From Candidatus Heimdallarchaeota archaeon (lineage in GTDB: Archaea; Asgardarchaeota; Wukongarchaeia; Wukongarchaeales; JBHIFL01), in assembly GCA_046761065.1 (NCBI GenBank), contig JBHIFL010000002.1, forward strand, positions 1 through 64,000: DNA of 64,000 nucleotides, given 5' to 3'. Positions 6,596 to 25,271 of this stretch are shown in pieces (position 1 is the first letter of the stretch; each line of letters opens with the position of its first letter). A program made the position numbers and the translations under genes. A model generated the notes under the pieces. That model was not told the origin of the DNA. It searched no databases and saw only the letters and a program-made list of their open reading frames with translations.

Positions 6596-7216
6596 TTAAA
6601 TCCCTCTTTAGCTCTCTCACATACGTATCCTAAAAGAATAGCTCGTAGCGAACTTTCCACGCTTGCTTACGCTGTTCCTCTTAAAATGGTGAAAGCCCCC
6701 AACTAACCCTGATCCCAGTTGCGCATTTACGCGAAGTCTTTTAGTACAGTCCCCCAATTAACTCTTTGCATACGAGGTTTAATCGCCATGATTTTATTTC
6801 AGAGTTTGGAAATCTTTCCTTCCACTTACTCTTTAAGTGAATTCTAGATAAATGTCACAATATAGGTAATTACACAATCACCACTTACCACTCAACTAAA
6901 GCCTTAGTTGAGTATTGGTCGCATACCTCCGCTTAAGCTCTTTCCACGGATCTCCGGTCGAATCAAAGACTCCCCTTCAGCTTTAATTTAATTCAGTATT
7001 AAAAACACCTATTAAAAAACTCTAATTTTATAGGCTTTTCACCACTCAGAGGGGTATAACATCATTTATATCATCTTTTTCTAAACATGAAACGATTCTT
7101 CAGCGATGGCAGTGGTAATTTAAGGAGAAATAGACTTAAATGAACCTCCAGTGCTGAGGATTGAGGCACCTTCTCCTAGGACCACTGCCATTAAAAGCCA
7201 AAAAAAGTAAAAGAAA

Positions 7217-8998
7217 ATGAACAAAATTCAGAAACACCAGATCTTTGGACTGGTAACCCTTGGTTTGTTCGTCGGCCTGATCCTCACCTTAGTTACGCAG
7301 AGTACTCCATACCCATCCTACACCATCCCAGAGATCCAAGGCGATGGGTGGTCCACACCATATCCTTGGACGTATGTAAATACGACCGGCATTGTCACTG
7401 CCGATTTCCAAGCTAAAAGTAAGCGAGGATTTTTCCTTCAAGATCCCTTCGGAGATGGCAATGCAGCCACCTCTGATGGAATTTTTGTATACGAGCGTTA
7501 TAAACAAGTAAACGTCGGTGATGAAATTATCCTCGTAGGATGAGCCAGAGAATACTACGGGCTGACCGAGATAGATAGAGTGGTGGCCATTACGGTCTTA
7601 TCCACTGGTAATCCACTTCCAATGCCGATTGAGCTCGACCCACCGTTCGATGATTACGCTTCTAATGTCTACTTTGAGGCGCTCGAGGGTATGTTGGTCA
7701 CGGTTCCTGATTTAAAGATGGTAGCTGGCACCAATCAATACGGAGAGATCGCCGGGGTACTTGAAGACTTGGATATTGAGCGAGTGTTCCAAGATGACCG
7801 CGCTGGGACAGGGGAGCTGATCTTCGCAGATGATGCTGGCGGAGTTCGACTCGATGTCAAGACGGGAGACCTGGTCAAAGGGTTATACGGTCCGCTCGAT
7901 TACACCTATGATGAGTACAAAGTTCTTCCTCCCTACCATGCACCACAGCAACCGATCGTGATTCGAAAAGGGCATGATGACCCCCGAATCCCCCGCGGAC
8001 GCGGGCGAGATGGACTCTCTATTGCCACTTATAACATGTACAACCTCTTCGATAATATTAACGATACTAAAAAGGACGATCCTATATACTCTTACTGGAC
8101 AATGAAACGGTTGCTGTCGAAGCATGCGAACGCTATCTATAACAATTTGCGATTACCAGACCTTATTGCAGTGCAGGAAGTCGAGAAGCTCGAACTGTTG
8201 GAGGCTTTGGCAGACACCCCGCCGATTCCTAAGGATTACTATGGCGCTGTTCTCATCGATGGACCAGACACACGAGGGATTGACGTGGGATTGCTTTATC
8301 GGACGGATCGGGTAGAAATCCTAGAATACTATGCCCGACAGACGTGTACCAACCTGAATGATAGCTATGGGCCAGGCGTTGACCCTAATTACCCTTGTCC
8401 ACCATTGACAAACCCACTCTTCTCACGACCCCCCCTAGTGGTTCACCTCAAAATCTTAGACAAGAATTCCGACAAGTGGAAGGGGCACCACAACCACAAT
8501 GACGATGACGATAGAAAACCTATGGATCTGTGGCTAATCATCAACCACTTCAAGTCAAAAGGTGTATACCCACCATATTATGCGGACACAACACCCCGCC
8601 GCCTTGAACAGGCTGCGTTTGTCGGTAGCTTGGTGGACGAGATTCAGATAACGGATCCTGACGCGCTGGTGCTTGTGCTCGGTGATCTTAATGACTTCGA
8701 AAATAGCGCTCCCTTGGCTACCCTAGAAGCTAGAGGGCTACGCAACCTGATTTACGAAGTCGAAAAAGAAGATCGCTACACTTACATCTACAGGGGAGTC
8801 TCTGAAGTGCTTGATCACATGCTGGTCACCCCCTCTATGGAGGACGCAGTGGATGATGTCATAGTAATTCACTTCAATCCTGACTTCCCATATGCGGAAT
8901 ATCGCTATGAGTGGGATACTGGGATCTGGAGCTCTGACCATGACGTCCTGATGGTATCAATCGAACTTGATGAACTAGACGATGACCACGACGACTGA
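7217..8998 (+). pseudogene. secreted endonuclease/exonuclease/phosphatase-family nuclease (ExeM/YhcR-like) interrupted by one in-frame TGA at 7541-7543
   Basis: ORFs 7217-7543 and 7580-8998 share a frame; read-through gives ...VG*AREYYGLTEID...; signal peptide, OB-fold (TIPEIQG, GFFLQD, SDGIFVY), ATYNMYN, QEVE, GDLND, LDH, SDHD. Confidence 0.8.
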
Positions 8999-11908: not shown

Positions 11909-12654
11909 CAGATAATGAGGGATGAAGCCCTCAGGAGGGAGGGCCTGATGAGGAGGGTAAGGAGGGCATAATATAAGAGGGTATTGACTGAGGAAAGGAA
12001 ACCCCCCCCAAGTCGTTTGGGAGAAGATGGGGTGGGGAGTTTATTTAGGTATAGGTGTGACCCTAAGGTTGGAGGAAGAGGGGGGTAGAGGGGAAGGTGG
12101 AGAAGGCCACGGGAGGAAGAAAGAGGAAAAAGGAAGGACAACGAGAACGGAGGGGAAGAGAGGAAGAGAAGCTTCGATGGGACGAAATGGCTGAAAGAAC
12201 GGGAGGGACAAGAGGGAGGGACAAAGGGGGAAAGAAGAGAGGAGGTGGGTGGAAAAATAATGAAGGGAAGCAAGTATTCCGAAAGAGGGGCGAAAGAGAG
12301 GAGGGGAAGGAGAGCAATACGCGTGAAGAGGAGAGGGAGAGGGAGGTGGTGGCGGGAGGTACAGAAAAGAGCGAGAAGGTGGGAAGAGAAAAACGTAAAG
12401 GGGCAGTATCAAACCCAAGGGTTTAAGTAGGAATAAGCTGGTGAATGGAGGAGAAAGAGCTGAGGGAAACATCGAAAGTTTTTGATAAAAAGGGTAGGCT
12501 TATGAAAGGGGGCAAGTACATCGATAACAGGATCGAAGGAGGATCGAATAACGGGGAATCCCAAAGAGATCTAGCTAGAAGTCGCAAGAGGGGCAGGTAA
12601 GGATCTCAACGAAGTAAAAGAAGTAGCTATGGGAGAATTTTGAGAAAAGCATGA
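11909..12654. repeat. polypurine (+)/polypyrimidine (-) low-complexity intergenic tract
   Basis: long G/A-dominated stretches such as GGGAGGAAGAAAGAGGAAAAAGGAAGG between divergent rps7 and rpoA2. Confidence 0.8.
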
Positions 12655-12675
12655 TTGGGGAGACGTGGGAATATT

Positions 12676-13875
12676 ATGGCCAAAAAAAAGAAGCGGAGAC
12701 TCTTAACGAAGAAAGAGTTAACAGCACAATTGAAGAAGTGGGAAGAGGATCTTCCCATAGAGATGTTAGAAGAGCTCGAAGGAGCGTTAAGGGAAGCCCG
12801 GGTGACGAAGCAAGAGTTTGAAGCGATCATGAAAGCGGTGGAGGAGGAGTATCAGCGGGCGGAGATCGAAGCCGGAGAGGCGGTGGGAACGGTAGCAGCA
12901 CAATCGATTGGAGAGCCGGGGACCCAAATGACCCTACGGACATTCCATTACGCGGGGGTAGCAGAGTTGGATGTAACACTGGGTCTGCCACGATTAATCG
13001 AGATCATTGATGCAAGAAAGGACCCGTCAACGCCTATGATGAGGGTGTATTTGGATGGGCGGGCGCGGGAGGAGTTAGGGCGGGCGCGGGAGGTGGCGCA
13101 CCGGTTGGAGCTGACAACAATCGAGCGGGTAGCGGATAGTGTGGAACTGGACTTAATCAACATGGAGATTGTTATCACGCTAAATCAGCAGTTAATGGAG
13201 AGTAAAGGATTAAAGATGGGGGAGATTGCGGCGCAGGTGAAGCGGTTGAAAAAGGGGACGGTAGTAGAGGAAGGGCGGCGGATCCGGTTGGAGCCCGCAG
13301 GGGAACCGACATTAAAGGATTTGCAGAAACTCGCTGAGCGGGTGCGAGAGCTGCAAGTGAAAGGGGTGAAGGGAGTACGGCGAGCGTTGATCCGCAAAGA
13401 GGGGGAGGAGTATGTGATTTTCACAGAGGGGACGAATTTAGCCGAGACCTTGAGGGTGGTCGGAGTCAATCCCACACGAACGTACACGAATAGTATCATG
13501 GAGATCGCGGGGGTCCTAGGGATCGAGGCCGCACGGGCGGCGATGATTCGGGAGGCGAAAGGGGTGCTAGAAGAGCAAGGGCTAGAAGTGGACGTGCGGC
13601 ATGTGATGCTCGTGGCGGATCTGATGACCCTGACGGGGCAAATCCGCCAGATAGGACGGCATGGGGTCAGTGGGGAGAAAGACAGTGTGTTAGCGCGAGC
13701 GGCGTTTGAAGTGACGGTGAAGCATCTATTAGAGGCGGCAGTAGCAGGGGAAGCGGACAAGCTGCGGGGGGTGACGGAGAATGTGATCATCGGGCAGGTG
13801 ATCCCAGTAGGGACGGGAGTAGTCGAGTTACTAATGACCCCCGGACAAGGGGGGAGACGGAGTGAGGCGAAATGA
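12676..13875 (+). CDS. rpoA2: DNA-directed RNA polymerase subunit A'' (Rpo1C)
   Basis: [45 protein letters not shown]. Confidence 0.98.
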
Positions 13876-14255
13876 GGGGGGAGAAACCCATGGAGAAAGG
13901 GGAGTTAGACCGAGCAGTAAAGATCGTGATGCGGACGGGAAAAATGGAGTGGGGGTGGAAGAAGGCAAAACAAGCGGTTTTGCGGGGTGGGGTCGAGCTC
14001 TTGATAGTGGCAGCAAACATCCCAATGACAGAGAGAGAAGAACTGAGATATTATGCGACATTAGGTGGGATCCCGATAGTGGAATACCCGGGGACGAGTT
14101 GGGAGTTGGGGGAGGTGTGTGGGCGACCGCATATGATCATGGTATTGATGATAAGGGATGTTGGAGACAGCAAGTTGAAGGAGCTTGGAACGAGAAGCAC
14201 GAACAGGGGAGAAGAGGGCGACACAAGAGCCATGAAGAGCGTGAAAGCAGAATAA
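13872..14255 (+). CDS. rpl30e: 50S ribosomal protein L30e
   Basis: ELG.VCGRPH motif; ATGA overlap with rpoA2; canonical position. Confidence 0.93.
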
Positions 14256-14275
14256 GGACAAGAGGCAAGGTGGAT

Positions 14276-14731
14276 ATGGTGAATAACAATGAGAAGAGTG
14301 AAAGCGGGGTCAAGCTACGGGGGGAAGAGTTACAATTTATGAGGGATTTCGCGCGGTTGACCGGTGCGGTCCCACGGGATTGCGTGATCGATGGGAATGA
14401 GCGGATTATCTTCGTGGTGAGGGCGGGAGAGGCAGGGCGGGTGATTGGGAAAGGGGGAGCGAACATAAAGCATGTACGAGAGGTGTTTAAGCGGGAGGTG
14501 AATGTGGTGGAATACGATGAAAAACCCGAGAACTTTGTGAAAAACGCATTAGCCCCAGCGAAGATAAAGAATGTCTCGGTGGTGGAGCAGAAGGATGGAA
14601 AACGGGTCTCCGTAGTGGATGTGGACCCAGAGGATCGAGGACGAGCGATCGGGAAGAATGGGCGAAACATTGGGCGGGCCCGGATATTAGCACGGCGGCA
14701 TTTTGGGATCGAGGACATTATTCTTGCGTAA
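14276..14731 (+). CDS. nusA: archaeal NusA-like KH protein
   Basis: VIGKGG and [11 protein letters not shown] motifs; start taken at ATG 14276. Confidence 0.95.
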
Positions 14732-14883
14732 GGGAAGGTAGGGCGAGAGGACCTCGAGTTCGGGTTCGGAAACTCGGGGGAGAGGGGTATAGAGGGGGAG
14801 AAACACCAGAACGGAATGGGGGGATGAGTACAATCATAACTGATAAAAGAAGGGGGGGAGAAAGAAGCAAGGAGCGCATCAAG

Positions 14884-15327
14884 ATGGTTCGGTCAAAAGC
14901 ACCAAGCGGCGAGTATGCGGCAAGAAAAGCGAGAAAAAAGCGGAAGAAATTCCGCTGGAGCAGCAATCAGTACAAACGGCGAATGCTGCAGTTAAAGAAA
15001 CGGTTCGATCCGCTGGAGGGCGCGCCACAAGGGCGGGGAATCGTGATCGAGAAGGTGGGAGTGGAAGCGAAACAACCAAATAGTGCGATTAGGAAGTGTG
15101 TCCGCATCCAGTTAATTAAGAATGGAAAGCAAGTGACGGCGTTCGTACCGGGGGATGGGGGGTTGCTGTATGTGGATGAGCATGATGAAGTGGTGATCGA
15201 GGGGATCGGAGGAGCGAAGGGGCGGGCGATGGGAGATTTACCGGGAGTACGATACAAAGTGAGCCTTGTAAATGGGGTATCCTTAGAGGCGTTGTTAAAA
15301 GGGATCAAGGAGAAGCCGCGGCGGTAG
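14884..15327 (+). CDS. rps12: 30S ribosomal protein S12 (uS12)
   Basis: [30 protein letters not shown]. Confidence 0.98.
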
Positions 15328-15446
15328 GTGCAAGGCGGTCGGCGAAAAGAGTAGCGGAAGAAAAAGAGAGGGGATCAAGAGAGTGGAAGTGGACGGGTTG
15401 GAGTGGGGTGAGTTTGTGGGAGTGTGAGGAAACCGTAGGTGAAAAG

Positions 15447-18144
15447 TTAAGCTTTCACCTTATTTTGTTGAAGACGAACGCGGATACTTTCAATGAGTTT
15501 AGGGAAGTCAATGTGTTTATAGTGGAGGCGGATGGGATCGACGCCGTCTTCACCGAATTTGAATTGAATGATGTGATTGATGGCATTCCGGACAGTACCG
15601 TCATAACGCACAGTGAGGTCCTGGAGGGCGTTAATGAGACGACGTTGCATGTATCCAGATTGAGAGGTACGAACAGCAGTATCGACGAGGCCTTCACGAC
15701 CGCCTTGGGCATGGAAGAAGAACTCAATAGGATTGAGACCTTCACGATAGTTGGATTTGACAAAGCCCCGAGCGGTGGCGCCAAGGTCTTCCCGATGGAA
15801 ATGGGGAAGGGTGCGATCGCGATAGCCACGGAGGATCCGTTCACCGCGGATGGATTGTTGCCCAATGACGACGCCCATTTGGGTGTAATTGAGGATATTC
15901 CCCCGGGCGCCGGTGGTGACCATGACGGCGATAGGGTTGGTGGGGGCGAGTTGTTGGCGGGCGATTTCACCAGAGCGATCGCGGGCTTCGGAAAGGATCT
16001 GCATGACACGCATTTCCAGGGTTTCTTCAAGAGTGCGGCCGGGAAGGCGTTCCAATTCCTGGCGGTGATACGCTTCGATTAACTTTTCAACTTTGTTGAT
16101 ATTATCGTCAAGGATGCTGTCAATGCGAAGTTTGATCTCTGGTGGGACGTCGACATCATTGAGACCCATACTAAACCCGCGAATGGAGAGGAACTTCAAG
16201 AGGACTATGGAGAGTTGGTCTAAGAAGCGGCGACCTGCCTCAATCCCATGATCGACGATGAGTTTTTGAATCAAGTTTTCGGGTTCTTCGACCCCAATAG
16301 TCCCTTTGTCGATGACTCCGCAGCGGAGCTGGCCGTTTTCAATGAGGACATAGCCCTCATTGGGACAATTTTCTTTCAGGCACTCAGAATGTTTGGTGCA
16401 GGTTTTCGCGCGGGCCTCGAAGTGAAGTGTGGGAGGGAGGAAGAGGGAGAAGATTTGTTTACCTGTCCACAGGGGTTCGGGCTCAGTGACGGCAGGTGGG
16501 GGGAGAGGACCGGCATATTGCCCGGTAACTAAGAGGTTGGCGACTTCTTCGCGGGGGAGGAAGGTGCCGGCGCGGGTGAGGAGGTAGGCAGCAGAGATGT
16601 AATCATGAATAGCCCCGATGATGGGACCACCGTATTTAGGGGTAATAATATGGTTTTGGACGAGGAGAAGGATTTTAGCTTCGGCACGCCCTTCTTCTGA
16701 CTGCGGGACGTGGATATTCATTTCATCGCCATCAAAGTCGGCATTATAGGGGGGAGTGACTTGGAGGTTGAGACGGAAGGTACGGTAGGGCATGACATGG
16801 ACTAAATGGGCCATGATGGACATGCGATGGAGCGAGGGCTGCCGGTTAAAGAGGACAATATCGCCATCACGGAGGTGACGTTCAACGATGAACTCGGTGG
16901 CGAGTTCTTCGGCGACAGTAGAGCGATCAGCGACATAACGGAGATCAATCCGGCGACCATCGGGGCGAACGATATAGTTAGCTCCCGGGAAGCCGTCAGG
17001 ACCGATGAGGATCAATTGTTTCATACTTTCGATGTTCCATTCAGTAACCCGTTCGGGAATGGTAAGAATGCGAGCAATTTCCTTGGGGATACCAACTTCA
17101 TTGATGCTGAGATTGGGATCAGGACTGATGACGGTGCGAGCGGAGAAATCAACGCGTTTCCCGGAGAGGTGGCCGCGAAAACGGCCTTCTTTCCCTTTAA
17201 GGCGTTGGGCGAGGGTACGGAGGGTGCGACCGGAGCGATGGCGGGCAGGGGGGATCCCGGAGACTTCATTATCAAAGAAGGTGGTGACGTGGTACTGGAG
17301 GAGTTCCCAGAGATCTTCGACAATGAGTTGCGGAGCTCCAGCTTCGATATTTTCGCGGAGGCGTTGATTAATGCGAATCGTGTCGACAAGCTTATGGGTG
17401 AGATCATCTTCGGAGCGGACGCCCGTTTCGAGGATGATAGAGGGACGAACGGCGACAGGGGGGACTGGAAGGACGGTGAGGACAATCCATTCTGGGCGCG
17501 CGTAGCGTGGGTCAAAGCCCAGGAGGATGGCGTCTTCGTTGGAAATACGTTCAAGGCGATCACGAATTTCGGAGGGGGAGAGCCGATAATTCCCTTCTTC
17601 GGTTTCCTCATATATAGTGGTGGGTTTCTCAAATTTGATTTTAAACTGAGGATTGCCACAATGGGGGCATTCCATAAGTTTTTTGGCGTTTTTCAGGACC
17701 TCATCAGTTGTAGAACGGAACTGTTCAGTCCGCATATCCCGGAAGTTCGTGAGGGTTTCTTGAAAGGTTTCGAGTTTTTCGGGGGGGAGAAGTATGCGAG
17801 AACAATCGCGACAAATTGATTGGAGGATTTTATGGGCTAACTTGGCATGGCCAACATGAAGGACAGGGCGTGCTAACTCAATATGCCCAAAATGACCGGG
17901 ACATTCGCCAACGCGGTTCCCACAGGTACGACAACGTTGGCCCGGCTCAATAGTCCCCAAGCGAGAATCCATCAAGCCAGAGCTAATGGGAGTGCCATCC
18001 TCATCATACGTTTACAGAGTGAGGGGAGGAAGCCCGTCACCGATCTGCCGTGATGATTCTGGCTGCGGACATTTTTCGTATGTCTTCTGGGGCTAGCAAG
18101 CCGAACTGAATCGATTCAATCTTCTTTAATGGGACTTTAGACAA
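15447..18144 (-). CDS. rpoA1: DNA-directed RNA polymerase subunit A' (Rpo1N); two exons, 18144-18043 and 18011-15447; 888 aa when spliced
   Basis: exon 1 encodes (M)SKVPLKKIESIQFGLLAPEDIRKMSAARIITAD; exon 2 starts TYDEDGTPISSGLMDSRLG; also CPGHFGH, NADFDGD and GGREGLVDTAV motifs. Confidence 0.97.
18012..18042 (-). other. BHB-type intron in rpoA1 pre-mRNA (31 nt)
   Basis: minus strand reads ACG-GCAG-AT|C-GGTGA-CGGGCTTCCTCCCC-TCACT-CTGT-AA|A-CGT: 4-bp central helix, two 3-nt bulges, flanking helices; removal restores ITADTYDEDG. Confidence 0.9.
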
Positions 18145-18597
18145 TGGGTCAACCCCTAGAGCGCGAGAGTAAACTAACGATATAAGCTCAAGAATAAAAA
18201 TAAAGCACTCCGCAAAAATTAGCAAGGGGATGGGATTAAAATCTTGTCAAAGGGACATAAGAGCGTCTGAAAGAAAAAGGTGTAGAAGAATGAGGAGGAA
18301 ATTCTGCCTGAGTGGTGGGAAAAAGGGAGAAAGAAAGCGTATGAGCAGGCTCCAAAGAAGCCCCCGATGCGACAAAGGAGATCACCGCCATACCGTTGGA
18401 AAATCAAAGGAAAGAAGGAAGGGATCCCTAAAAGGCGTGTAGGATGTTGGAAGGGAAAGGTTATGGAAAAAAGAGGAGGGAGCCACGCTGTAAGAGGAGA
18501 AACAAAAACCTTAAGATGAGAAGTCCTAAAGAATAAATAAGAAATGGAGCATGGTAGAGTAGGTGTGTCCGAGAGAAAAAAGAGGACTGGTGAGAAG

Positions 18598-19851
18598 ATG
18601 AAGGGAATTATCCTAGCAGCAACGAAGGGAGCCTATCTCGACCCGCTAACTGAAGGGAAACCGAAAGCGATGATCAAGATCTCAGGGAAGCCGTTGGTGC
18701 AGCATACGATTGAAGCGTTTCGAGATTCGGGGATTCGTGAGTTAATTGTGGTGATCGGCTATAAGGGTGAACAAGTGGTAGAGGAGTTAGGGACGGGAGA
18801 GGCTATCGGGGTGTCACTCACCTATGTAAAGCAAGAAGCACCAGAGGGGGTGGGCCAAGCCGTTTTGGCAGCAAAAAACGCTTTAATAGGAGAAGAACGG
18901 TTTATTTTAGCCTATTCAGATGTGATCATCGCCCCCGAAATGATTGGACGGCTGATCAACGTATCAGATCAAGAGGGGGGCAAAATGACCTTTTCTATCA
19001 CCCTGACGCCTGAGACGAGTCATAGTGGAGTGGTTTACCGGGACGAAGAGGGATGTGTGACTCGAACGGTGGAGAATCCCCTTCCAGGGACTGAAAAAAG
19101 CTATTATGTACTTTCAGGGTTGTATCTGCTAGGACCAACCATTTTAGACCAACTGGAACAAACATCAGCGTTTCCAGAGGCCATTCAAGAGTTAATCAGA
19201 GCCAAAGAGAAGATTTATACTTCTGTGTGGGAGAAACAGTGGGCACACATCCGGTATCCTTGGGACCTGTTCGAGGTAAACCGATTGTTGCTTGATCGAA
19301 TTCAGGAGACGCGAATTCATCGAACTGCGAAGGTGGAACCTAACGTCTCGATCGAACACCCGGTGGTGATCGATAGTGGGGCAATCATTCGACCAGGGGC
19401 AACCCTCCGGGGACCTTCGTATATCGGACCAAATGCGTACATCGGGAATAACAGCCTGATTCGAGAATATACGGACTTAGCGGAGAATGTCCAAATCGGA
19501 TTCTCTTCGGAGATCAAAAAATCCTTGGTGATGGAGAACACGAAGATAGGCAGCCTATCCTATATTGGGGATAGTCTAATTGGGATGAACAGTGAGCTGA
19601 CCGCAGGGATCACGACCATGAACGTCTCAATCCCGCCTGCGCCTTTGGTCGTGACAATCAATGAGAAAGAGTATCAGCCAAATCTGAAGAAACTGGGGGC
19701 GATTGTGGGGAATGGGACCCGAATTAGTGCGAATGTCTCGACCTATCCGGGGGTAATCATTGGGGCGAATGCCCAAATCGGGCCAGGGGCGACCATCACG
19801 CGAAATATCCCCCCGAATAAAGAAGTGCATGCGAACCCCAGCAGATTCTAA
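18598..19851 (+). CDS. sugar-phosphate nucleotidyltransferase with left-handed beta-helix (archaeal GlmU-like)
   Basis: MKGIILAA..G..L.PLT..KPKAMI, YPWDL, hexapeptide repeats, KLGAIVG. Confidence 0.85.
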   Translation: MKGIILAATKGAYLDPLTEGKPKAMIKISGKPLVQHTIEAFRDSGIRELIVVIGYKGEQVVEELGTGEAIGVSLTYVKQEAPEGVGQAVLAAKNALIGEERFILAYSDVIIAPEMIGRLINVSDQEGGKMTFSITLTPETSHSGVVYRDEEGCVTRTVENPLPGTEKSYYVLSGLYLLGPTILDQLEQTSAFPEAIQELIRAKEKIYTSVWEKQWAHIRYPWDLFEVNRLLLDRIQETRIHRTAKVEPNVSIEHPVVIDSGAIIRPGATLRGPSYIGPNAYIGNNSLIREYTDLAENVQIGFSSEIKKSLVMENTKIGSLSYIGDSLIGMNSELTAGITTMNVSIPPAPLVVTINEKEYQPNLKKLGAIVGNGTRISANVSTYPGVIIGANAQIGPGATITRNIPPNKEVHANPSRF

Positions 19852-24626: not shown

Positions 24627-25271
24627 TTATAGATCAATTTCTTGTGCACGATAATAAGTAACATCTCCACTCCGATCAATAACAGCCAAAAGGAGTTGTT
24701 TTCGAGCTGCAAGAGCAATTGAAAAGAGATATTCGAGGGTTTCTAGTGGAAGCCGCTTCCCTTCAACCATTGGAGCAACAAATAACTTAGCTGGATCCCG
24801 CCCCGGTTGCCCACCCCGCTGATAGACCCGGAATAAAATTGGATCTTCAAAGCCAATCCGGACAATGTATCCTCGCATTCGCAAATCCTTATAAACCAGG
24901 TAGTTAACCCAAAAGTCGTTGTTTTTCATGACAAAGTAGTGAACTACTTGCTGAAGAGTCATTTGAGAGCTGGCTTTTTCATCTAAAATCACCAGGCGTT
25001 TTCGCTCGATCAAGTTTATAGCCTCTACATCACTAAGAAGTAAAGTTTCTTGGTCTTTCAATTCCCCATAAAAACCCGTATTGTACAAGATACTCGCTCC
25101 TGGACCGATAACAAGGATTCGACCATTCTGGAACACGCCAGTAGCCACAAAAACCTCTTCTTCAAGTCCGGTAGGTCTCTCTTCTTCGTTTCCGTTTTCG
25201 ATTGTTTCATCACCCACGAGAGAGCACCTTCCAACTAAAAAACATCTTGAATACCTAATGTATACTCTCAA
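24627..25271 (-). CDS. endA: tRNA splicing endonuclease subunit, probably the structural (beta) type
   Basis: LS.VEA..L, YLVYKDLRMRGY, FRVY.RG, RKQLLLAVID..GDVTYY; catalytic His and G(L)KFG motif not evident; true start may be downstream. Confidence 0.85.
   Translation of the reverse strand: MRVYIRYSRCFLVGRCSLVGDETIENGNEEERPTGLEEEVFVATGVFQNGRILVIGPGASILYNTGFYGELKDQETLLLSDVEAINLIERKRLVILDEKASSQMTLQQVVHYFVMKNNDFWVNYLVYKDLRMRGYIVRIGFEDPILFRVYQRGGQPGRDPAKLFVAPMVEGKRLPLETLEYLFSIALAARKQLLLAVIDRSGDVTYYRAQEIDL

Follow-up and report, generated by a model that had tools for sequence, protein, structure and literature searches.

A candidate bulge–helix–bulge intron in the coding sequence of RNA polymerase subunit A' (rpoA1) of an Asgard archaeon

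Introduction

To our knowledge, archaeal protein genes are generally treated as uninterrupted. Introns bounded by the bulge–helix–bulge (BHB) motif reportedly occur in archaeal tRNA and rRNA, as described by Marck and Grosjean in 2003, and a BHB intron in the cbf5 pre-mRNA of Crenarchaeota (Aeropyrum, Sulfolobus, Desulfurococcales) is said to have been reported by Watanabe in 2002 and Yoshinari in 2006; Yokobori in 2009 (PMC2738675) described it as well. In this study, we consider a 31-nucleotide (nt) insert in rpoA1, the gene for RNA polymerase subunit A' (Rpo1N), on a stretch of 64,000 nt (hereafter, the window) that represents positions 1 to 64,000 of the forward strand of contig JBHIFL010000002.1 from Candidatus Heimdallarchaeota archaeon (assembly GCA_046761065.1), a metagenome-assembled genome (MAG). 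A first-pass annotation, made from the sequence of the window alone, had suggested a BHB intron at this locus and an Asgard archaeon as the host; the latter assignment held. According to published accounts, cbf5 alone among archaeal coding sequences contains a BHB intron (PMC7714728, PMC2738675), and a BHB processing site has been described in the 5' untranslated region of the Haloferax volcanii HVO_1309 mRNA (PMC7714728). We found no description of a BHB intron in RNA polymerase genes or in Asgard protein genes in open-access papers and bioRxiv, in line with the statement of the first-pass annotation that it knew of no earlier report for rpoA1.

The predicted rpoA1 intron resembles the crenarchaeal cbf5 intron in being a short BHB intron within a coding sequence, whose retention in the RNA would leave the cell without the protein, in having a host lineage whose EndA is hetero-oligomeric, (alpha-beta)2, and in having been overlooked by gene callers. 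It differs in that the host gene encodes the largest RNA polymerase subunit and the host organism is an Asgard archaeon, and in its location between codons, 102 nt into the open reading frame (ORF). Splicing of cbf5, so far alone among archaeal protein genes, has been demonstrated by experiment, whereas we infer that of rpoA1 from sequence. With the BHB introns of tRNA and rRNA the element shares the motif, the rule for cutting and the enzymes presumed to act on it, and the tRNA genes of this genome also look heavily interrupted; however, here the substrate would be an mRNA, so that translation and splicing compete, and on the exon side of the motif the constraint comes from a protein sequence and not from a tRNA fold. 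The HVO_1309 site is an EndA substrate in an mRNA, as the rpoA1 element would be, but it lies in an untranslated leader and leaves the reading frame intact, whereas in rpoA1 the coding sequence itself is split.

Results

Reading frames and gene structure

The rpoA1 gene is located on the minus strand in two pieces (Table 1). A TTG codon at 18144 opens 34 codons, the last of which is GAT at 18045-18043; past this point the same frame continues with CGG and then TGA at 18039-18037, that is, two codons into the insert and only 108 nt into the ORF. Exon 2 is in a different frame and reads ACG TAT GAT from 18011 (TYDEDGTPISSGLMDSRLG...). Removal of the 31 nt joins 34 and 854 codons into a protein of 888 amino acids (aa). 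The exon 1 peptide matches positions 2-28 of the Pfam profile RNA_pol_Rpb1_1, while the exon 2 product contains Pfam Rpb1 domains 1-5 and enters domain 1 at profile position 31; since the profile coordinates run on across the junction, the two exons are consecutive parts of one protein. The first-pass annotation had placed the N-terminus and the remainder of rpoA1 in different frames separated by 31 nt with an in-frame TGA, and had claimed that excision of these nucleotides restores ITADTYDEDG and an 888-aa product; the coordinates agree exactly, and so does our count of codons. Its expectation that standard annotation would miss the intron was also borne out, as gene callers annotate shortened rpoA1 products of 841 and 864 aa.

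We interpret the 31 nt at 18042-18012 as an archaeal BHB intron within the rpoA1 coding sequence, which is excised from the mRNA, and assign to this interpretation a probability of about 0.87. The essential rpoA1 mRNA very probably has to be cut and rejoined in the cell. The predicted spliced junction is GGCAGAU|ACGUAUGAU, and the predicted tryptic junction peptide is IITADTYDEDGTPISSGLMDSR.

Table 1. Positions of the rpoA1 exons, the elements of the predicted intron, and the genes of the presumed splicing enzymes. Positions refer to the window unless a contig of the source genome (G000) is named.
Feature	Position	Strand	Description
rpoA1 exon 1	18043..18144	-	TTG start and 33 codons, ending ...MSAARIITAD (= ...EDIRKMSAARIITAD)
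rpoA1 exon 2	15447..18011	-	854 codons and stop (15447-15449), beginning TYDEDGTPISSG
Predicted 31-nt BHB intron	18012..18042	-	first nucleotide, base 3 of the 5' bulge (AU|C); last nucleotide, base 2 of the 3' bulge (AA|A)
Whole hBHBh' motif	18001..18056	-	fold and pair-cell count across three species
Outer helix (exon–exon)	18056-18049 with 18010-18001	-	part of the hBHBh' motif
Central 4-bp helix	18048-18045 with 18017-18014	-	GCAG/CUGU, one G-U pair
3-nt bulges	18044-18042 (AU|C) and 18013-18011 (AA|A)	-	on opposite strands
Inner helix and loop	18041-18018	-	GGUGA/UCACU, C-C mismatch, GGG/CCC, 6-nt loop
EndA paralogue without catalytic His, beta-like structural subunit	24627..25271	-	PF01974 and PF02778; 6.5 kb from rpoA1
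EndA alpha, with Tyr/His/Lys catalytic residues	G000:C15:7589-7843		on a second contig
RtcB	G000:C14:28843-30144		ligase gene

Structure of the insert

The junctions of the insert fold into a canonical BHB motif, and all elements listed by the first-pass annotation, which had called it a textbook case (outer helix ACG/CGT, central helix GCAG/CTGT, bulges AT|C and AA|A, inner helix GGTGA/TCACT), are present in the sequence. The three outer pairs (18051-18049 with 18010-18008) are lengthened by UCAUC/GAUGA past a 2-nt bulge. Along the RNA, the 5' side runs through the outer helix, the central helix, the bulge and the inner helix, and the 3' side through the inner helix, the central helix, the bulge and the outer helix. 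Such strand order is that of the canonical 37/38 tRNA intron in pre-tRNA. The minimum-free-energy fold (-22.2 kcal/mol, z = -1.6) reproduces this layout, except that the 5' bulge slides by one base, an A-U pair replacing the first inner G-U pair.

The cut rule of EndA, namely, cleavage after the second base of each bulge, had been said to restore the reading frame, and applied here it yields ...IITAD|TYDEDG... with no gap relative to 109 archaeal homologues. In this DNA, a loose BHB motif occurs with a frequency of about 1e-4 per (position, length) pair, so that a match at the sole junction which repairs the protein is not expected by chance.

A search of the region against Rfam matched no family, and ARAGORN found no tRNA in the window. 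Among other classes of intervening elements, a group I or II intron was ruled out by the length of 31 nt, far too short for either, and an intein was ruled out since the insert is neither in frame nor free of stop codons.

Absence of the insert from homologues

The 109 homologues comprise 29 Asgard relatives from 17 families and 80 further archaeal genomes, the latter being those GTDB species representatives, from across Archaea, that matched best. In all 29 relatives the codon of the last exon 1 residue adjoins the first codon of exon 2 in frame, the sequence (A/P)D|TYDEDG at the junction being almost invariant, and the 80 best matches are all uninterrupted at this point. A degenerate pattern allowing a gap of 20-50 nt at the junction, when run over 400 Asgard genomes, truly matched only the source genome; the match in G002 was rejected as a spurious upstream one, rpoA1 of G002 being uninterrupted. 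As far as sampled, the rpoA1 intron is confined to one genus-level clade, represented by the window and the two relatives described below.

Reality of the DNA and conservation in diverged relatives

The source is a short-read MAG, and thus the 31 nt could in principle be an artefact of assembly or sequencing that is not part of the organism's DNA. The insert and its flanks are, however, identical in two independent per-run Logan assemblies (SRR29324585 and SRR29324587), and orthologous inserts are found in two unrelated NCBI assemblies, so the chance of an artefact is close to negligible. The relatives were reached through the truncated gene call, whose protein cluster at 90% contains two further members with N-termini that read through the insert. 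Their contigs belong to GCA_012975005.1 and GCA_048887365.1 (labelled Candidatus Hodarchaeota); the gene neighbourhood in both is that of the window, and rpoA1 is about 87% identical at the nucleotide level, that is, diverged by about 13%. Each of the two has an insert of 32 nt in rpoA1, at precisely the position of the insert in the window. A metagenome scan with the intron-junction pattern returned GCA_012975005.1 again and two chance matches, and nothing further.

The comparison with these diverged relatives provides, in our opinion, the strongest evidence for the predicted rpoA1 intron. Their central helix is GCGG/CCGU instead of GCAG/CUGU, which constitutes a compensatory change from A-U to G-C, and the exon half of this change is a synonymous substitution of GCA by GCG. 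Their 5' bulge reads AU|U in place of AU|C and their 3' bulge UU|A or AU|A in place of AA|A, and the loop differs by a 1-nt indel, hence the lengths of 31 and 32 nt. Among the three sequences, 10 out of 32 columns vary in the intron versus two out of 46 in the flanking exon nucleotides; six of the varying intron columns are among the 12 unpaired ones and four are among the 20 paired ones. Standard pairs occupy 96.7% of pair cells across the three species, compared to 33-60% if the partners are slid by 1-3 columns. Thus, the checks proposed in the first-pass annotation yielded an insert present in two relatives and missing from the 109 homologues, one compensatory pair, located in the central helix, and the same 31 nt in both independent assemblies of the source.

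These data also bear on the possibility that the RNA remains unspliced and the ribosomes bypass the insert or shift frame over it, as in gene 60 of phage T4. A stop codon soon after the would-be take-off region, followed by a stable hairpin, gives the locus a superficial likeness to bypass signals, but around the gap no take-off codon has a matching landing codon placed such that the conserved TYD residues are retained. Moreover, the gap is longer in the relatives (32 nt) than in the window (31 nt), so that the frame offset between the exons differs by species. Removal from the RNA would be unaffected by such a difference, but a fixed translational shift would not be, as the required shift would have to differ between species. 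Finally, what is conserved is a BHB whose 3-nt bulges are symmetric and whose 4-bp helix shows a compensatory change; this represents a target of EndA, which bypassing does not need. We consider bypassing to have a slim chance of being correct and retain excision of a BHB intron as the preferred explanation.

Selection on the exons and gene copy number

Another possibility is that rpoA1 is broken or split, being either a pseudogene whose working copy lies in the 9% of the genome missing from the assembly, or a gene for two polypeptides, a 36-aa peptide and an N-terminally truncated A'. The search of the genome for a second, intact rpoA1, the presence of which would have spoken against the first-pass annotation, gave one match, namely, the interrupted gene itself; the MAG has a completeness of 91% and a contamination of 8%, which agrees with a missing copy, as the annotated truncated products agree with a split gene. 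On the other hand, compared with the two relatives, exon 1 has 8-11 synonymous codon differences and one non-synonymous difference, and the first 107-117 codons of exon 2 have 29-37 synonymous and 6-8 non-synonymous changes. So few non-synonymous changes in both exons indicate that both pieces are still selected as protein, and this purifying selection operates across three species, while the interruption is retained at about 13% nucleotide divergence. Exon 2 is not preceded by a conserved start codon: in the window it is directly preceded by TAA, with the first start codon 12 codons downstream, whereas the relatives use GTG inside the insert. A broken or split gene would also leave the conserved RNA structure unexplained. 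Such a gene has a small chance of being the true state of affairs, the largest among the alternatives to an excised intron.

Several observations weigh against an excised intron. The completeness and contamination of the MAG leave room for a second, intact rpoA1. The z-score of the fold, calculated for the window sequence alone, is modest. There are only three distinct intron sequences, which provide a single compensatory pair and make the formal test of covariation weak; in its shuffle control, 168 out of 500 shuffles attain the observed value, which is not significant. The first pair of the inner helix (G-U) is lost in both relatives, so that their 5' bulge becomes an internal loop of 4 nt by 1 nt; their 3' bulge is strict, and the 5' one may be described as a 3-nt bulge plus one mismatch. 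Lastly, the argument for splicing has been drawn entirely from DNA.

Splicing enzymes and the proposed pathway

The first-pass annotation had supposed that the host would use its tRNA splicing machinery, and genes for EndA alpha, for an EndA paralogue lacking the catalytic histidine, and for RtcB are indeed all encoded in the genome (Table 1). Judging by their sequences, the two EndA paralogues together point to an (alpha-beta)2-type enzyme. Asgard archaea are known to have (alpha-beta)2 EndA with a loop tied to broad substrate specificity (PMC5829648).

In the proposed pathway, the codons for IIT and TYDE in the pre-mRNA would pair to form the outer helix, GCAG/CUGU would separate the two 3-nt bulges, and the body of the intron would form the inner hairpin. 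The two-subunit (alpha-beta)2-type EndA would then cut each bulge between its second and third base, and RtcB would join the exons into ...GCA GAU|ACG UAU..., encoding the 888-aa subunit, and probably circularise the intron. In unspliced RNA, translation would end at UGA two codons into the intron, producing a peptide of 36 aa.

We infer the actual cleavage and ligation, and the role of EndA and RtcB in them, from these sequence features, and since the assignment of the two enzymes is purely by analogy, one may suggest that the insert leaves the RNA through the action of other enzymes. However, the geometry is exactly that of an EndA substrate, both EndA subunits and RtcB are encoded, a self-splicing intron would need far more than 31 nt, and the Rfam search had no matches; therefore, we see a very slim chance for other enzymes and favour EndA and RtcB as the likely agents. 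Jointly, the four alternatives (artefact, bypassing, broken or split gene, other enzymes) take up a minor share of the total probability.

Discussion

In terms of known systems, the rpoA1 element is a BHB intron of the cbf5 type in an mRNA, at a new site in a new lineage and with unusually good comparative support. If it is spliced as predicted, the catalytic core of the transcription machinery would depend on tRNA-splicing enzymes. This raises the question of how splicing stays ahead of coupled translation, given the stop codon so early in the ORF, as well as questions about the route by which BHB introns enter coding sequences and about EndA/RtcB capacity as a limit on RNA polymerase supply. 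There is also a practical consequence for annotation: gene callers shorten genes of this kind, as here, or label them "partial," which distorts marker-gene sets and RpoA phylogenies.

A broader possibility, which we regard as tentative and on balance somewhat doubtful, is that in Asgard lineages BHB mini-introns are spreading from tRNA genes into essential information-processing genes (rpoA1, uS5, cbf5; see below for the latter two). If true, splicing of mRNA by EndA and RtcB would be a routine element of gene expression among the prokaryotes closest to eukaryotes, the group from which arguments on how eukaryotic gene structure arose are drawn. Gating of RNA polymerase synthesis by splicing capacity, a stronger form of this idea, seems less likely.

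The first-pass annotation also drew a parallel with HAC1/XBP1 splicing in eukaryotes. The two cases would be alike in the non-spliceosomal removal of a short frame-changing intron, and metazoan exons are joined by RtcB, but the endonuclease Ire1 reads two stem-loops rather than a BHB, and HAC1/XBP1 splicing is stress-regulated, whereas the rpoA1 case shows no sign of regulation. By this analogy, coupling of the RNA polymerase supply to EndA/RtcB activity may be imagined, as speculation.

Additional observations

A search for further introns of this type throughout the genome, independent of homology, was dominated by noise. The first-pass annotation had proposed to scan the whole genome for BHB motifs at apparent frameshifts. 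The census started from 44,426 loose BHB hits, to which ORF-joining, closure and codon-usage tests were applied, and retained 79 candidates versus 60-76 in controls whose 3' cut was displaced by 1-5 nt; that is, the proposed scan gave counts equal to those of the controls. The rpoA1 intron itself failed the coding-score filter of the census because exon 1 is so short.

Individual genes do contain similar elements. The cbf5 gene of this genome has a textbook 26-nt BHB intron at G000:C28:25211-25236 (minus strand), with the motif GGGA CCUU AG|A GCUG...CAGC AAGG AA|A UCCC, located between bases 1 and 2 of the triplet that encodes the catalytic aspartate (GHAGTL-D-PNVTG); in Crenarchaeota, the cbf5 intron occupies that position in the Asp codon as well (PMC2738675). 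The gene for ribosomal protein uS5 (G000:C19, about 7214-7248, plus strand) contains a 35-nt BHB-like insert between VQR and QTDAGRK, with a less regular outer helix and with the central helix GCAG/CUGU and the 3' bulge AAA identical to those of the rpoA1 intron. Only one of the 44,426 loose hits combines GCAG/CUGU with AAA, namely, the rpoA1 intron. These coincidences hint that the rpoA1 and uS5 introns may have a common origin, or that there may be a preferred insertion or EndA recognition sequence.

For the entire 4.4 Mb genome ARAGORN called only 19 tRNAs, 16 of them with an intron, and with so few calls most tRNA genes seem to be too interrupted for standard detection. This count fits the observation that Asgard tRNA genes are heavily interrupted (bioRxiv 10.64898/2026.10.13.758758).

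The canonical operon rpoH-rpoB-rpoA1-rpoA2 is broken in the window (12600-18144), and rpoB is on another contig (listed with G000:C20:31465-32583). The rpoA1 gene on the minus strand is convergent with rpoA2-L30e-NusA-S12 on the plus strand (about 12.6-15.3 kb), and its upstream neighbour is a divergent gene for an NTP-transferase (18544-19851). Both intron-bearing relatives have the same broken-operon arrangement around rpoA1.

Irregular rpoA1 genes were seen elsewhere in Asgard archaea too. In a genome from another family (L036:781-820, corresponding to G029:C71:17580-17619), rpoA1 has a 40-nt out-of-frame insert between GHFGH and IELARP, with a BHB-like core (GGAC/GUCU, bulges AU|U and AA|A, inner helix AAAU/AUUU) and a weak outer helix. 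Three other rpoA1 matches from the phylum-wide protein search (G354:C340:4067-6721, G367:C3:189491-192145, and G335:C438:416-3070) exceed the matches of their genus neighbours by about 30 nt and include one or two in-frame stop codons, looking like in-frame 30-nt inserts at other sites. Finally, in G033, G013, G008, G040, and other Asgard genomes, a single open frame of 1300-1420 aa extends over rpoA1, which suggests fused A'-A''.

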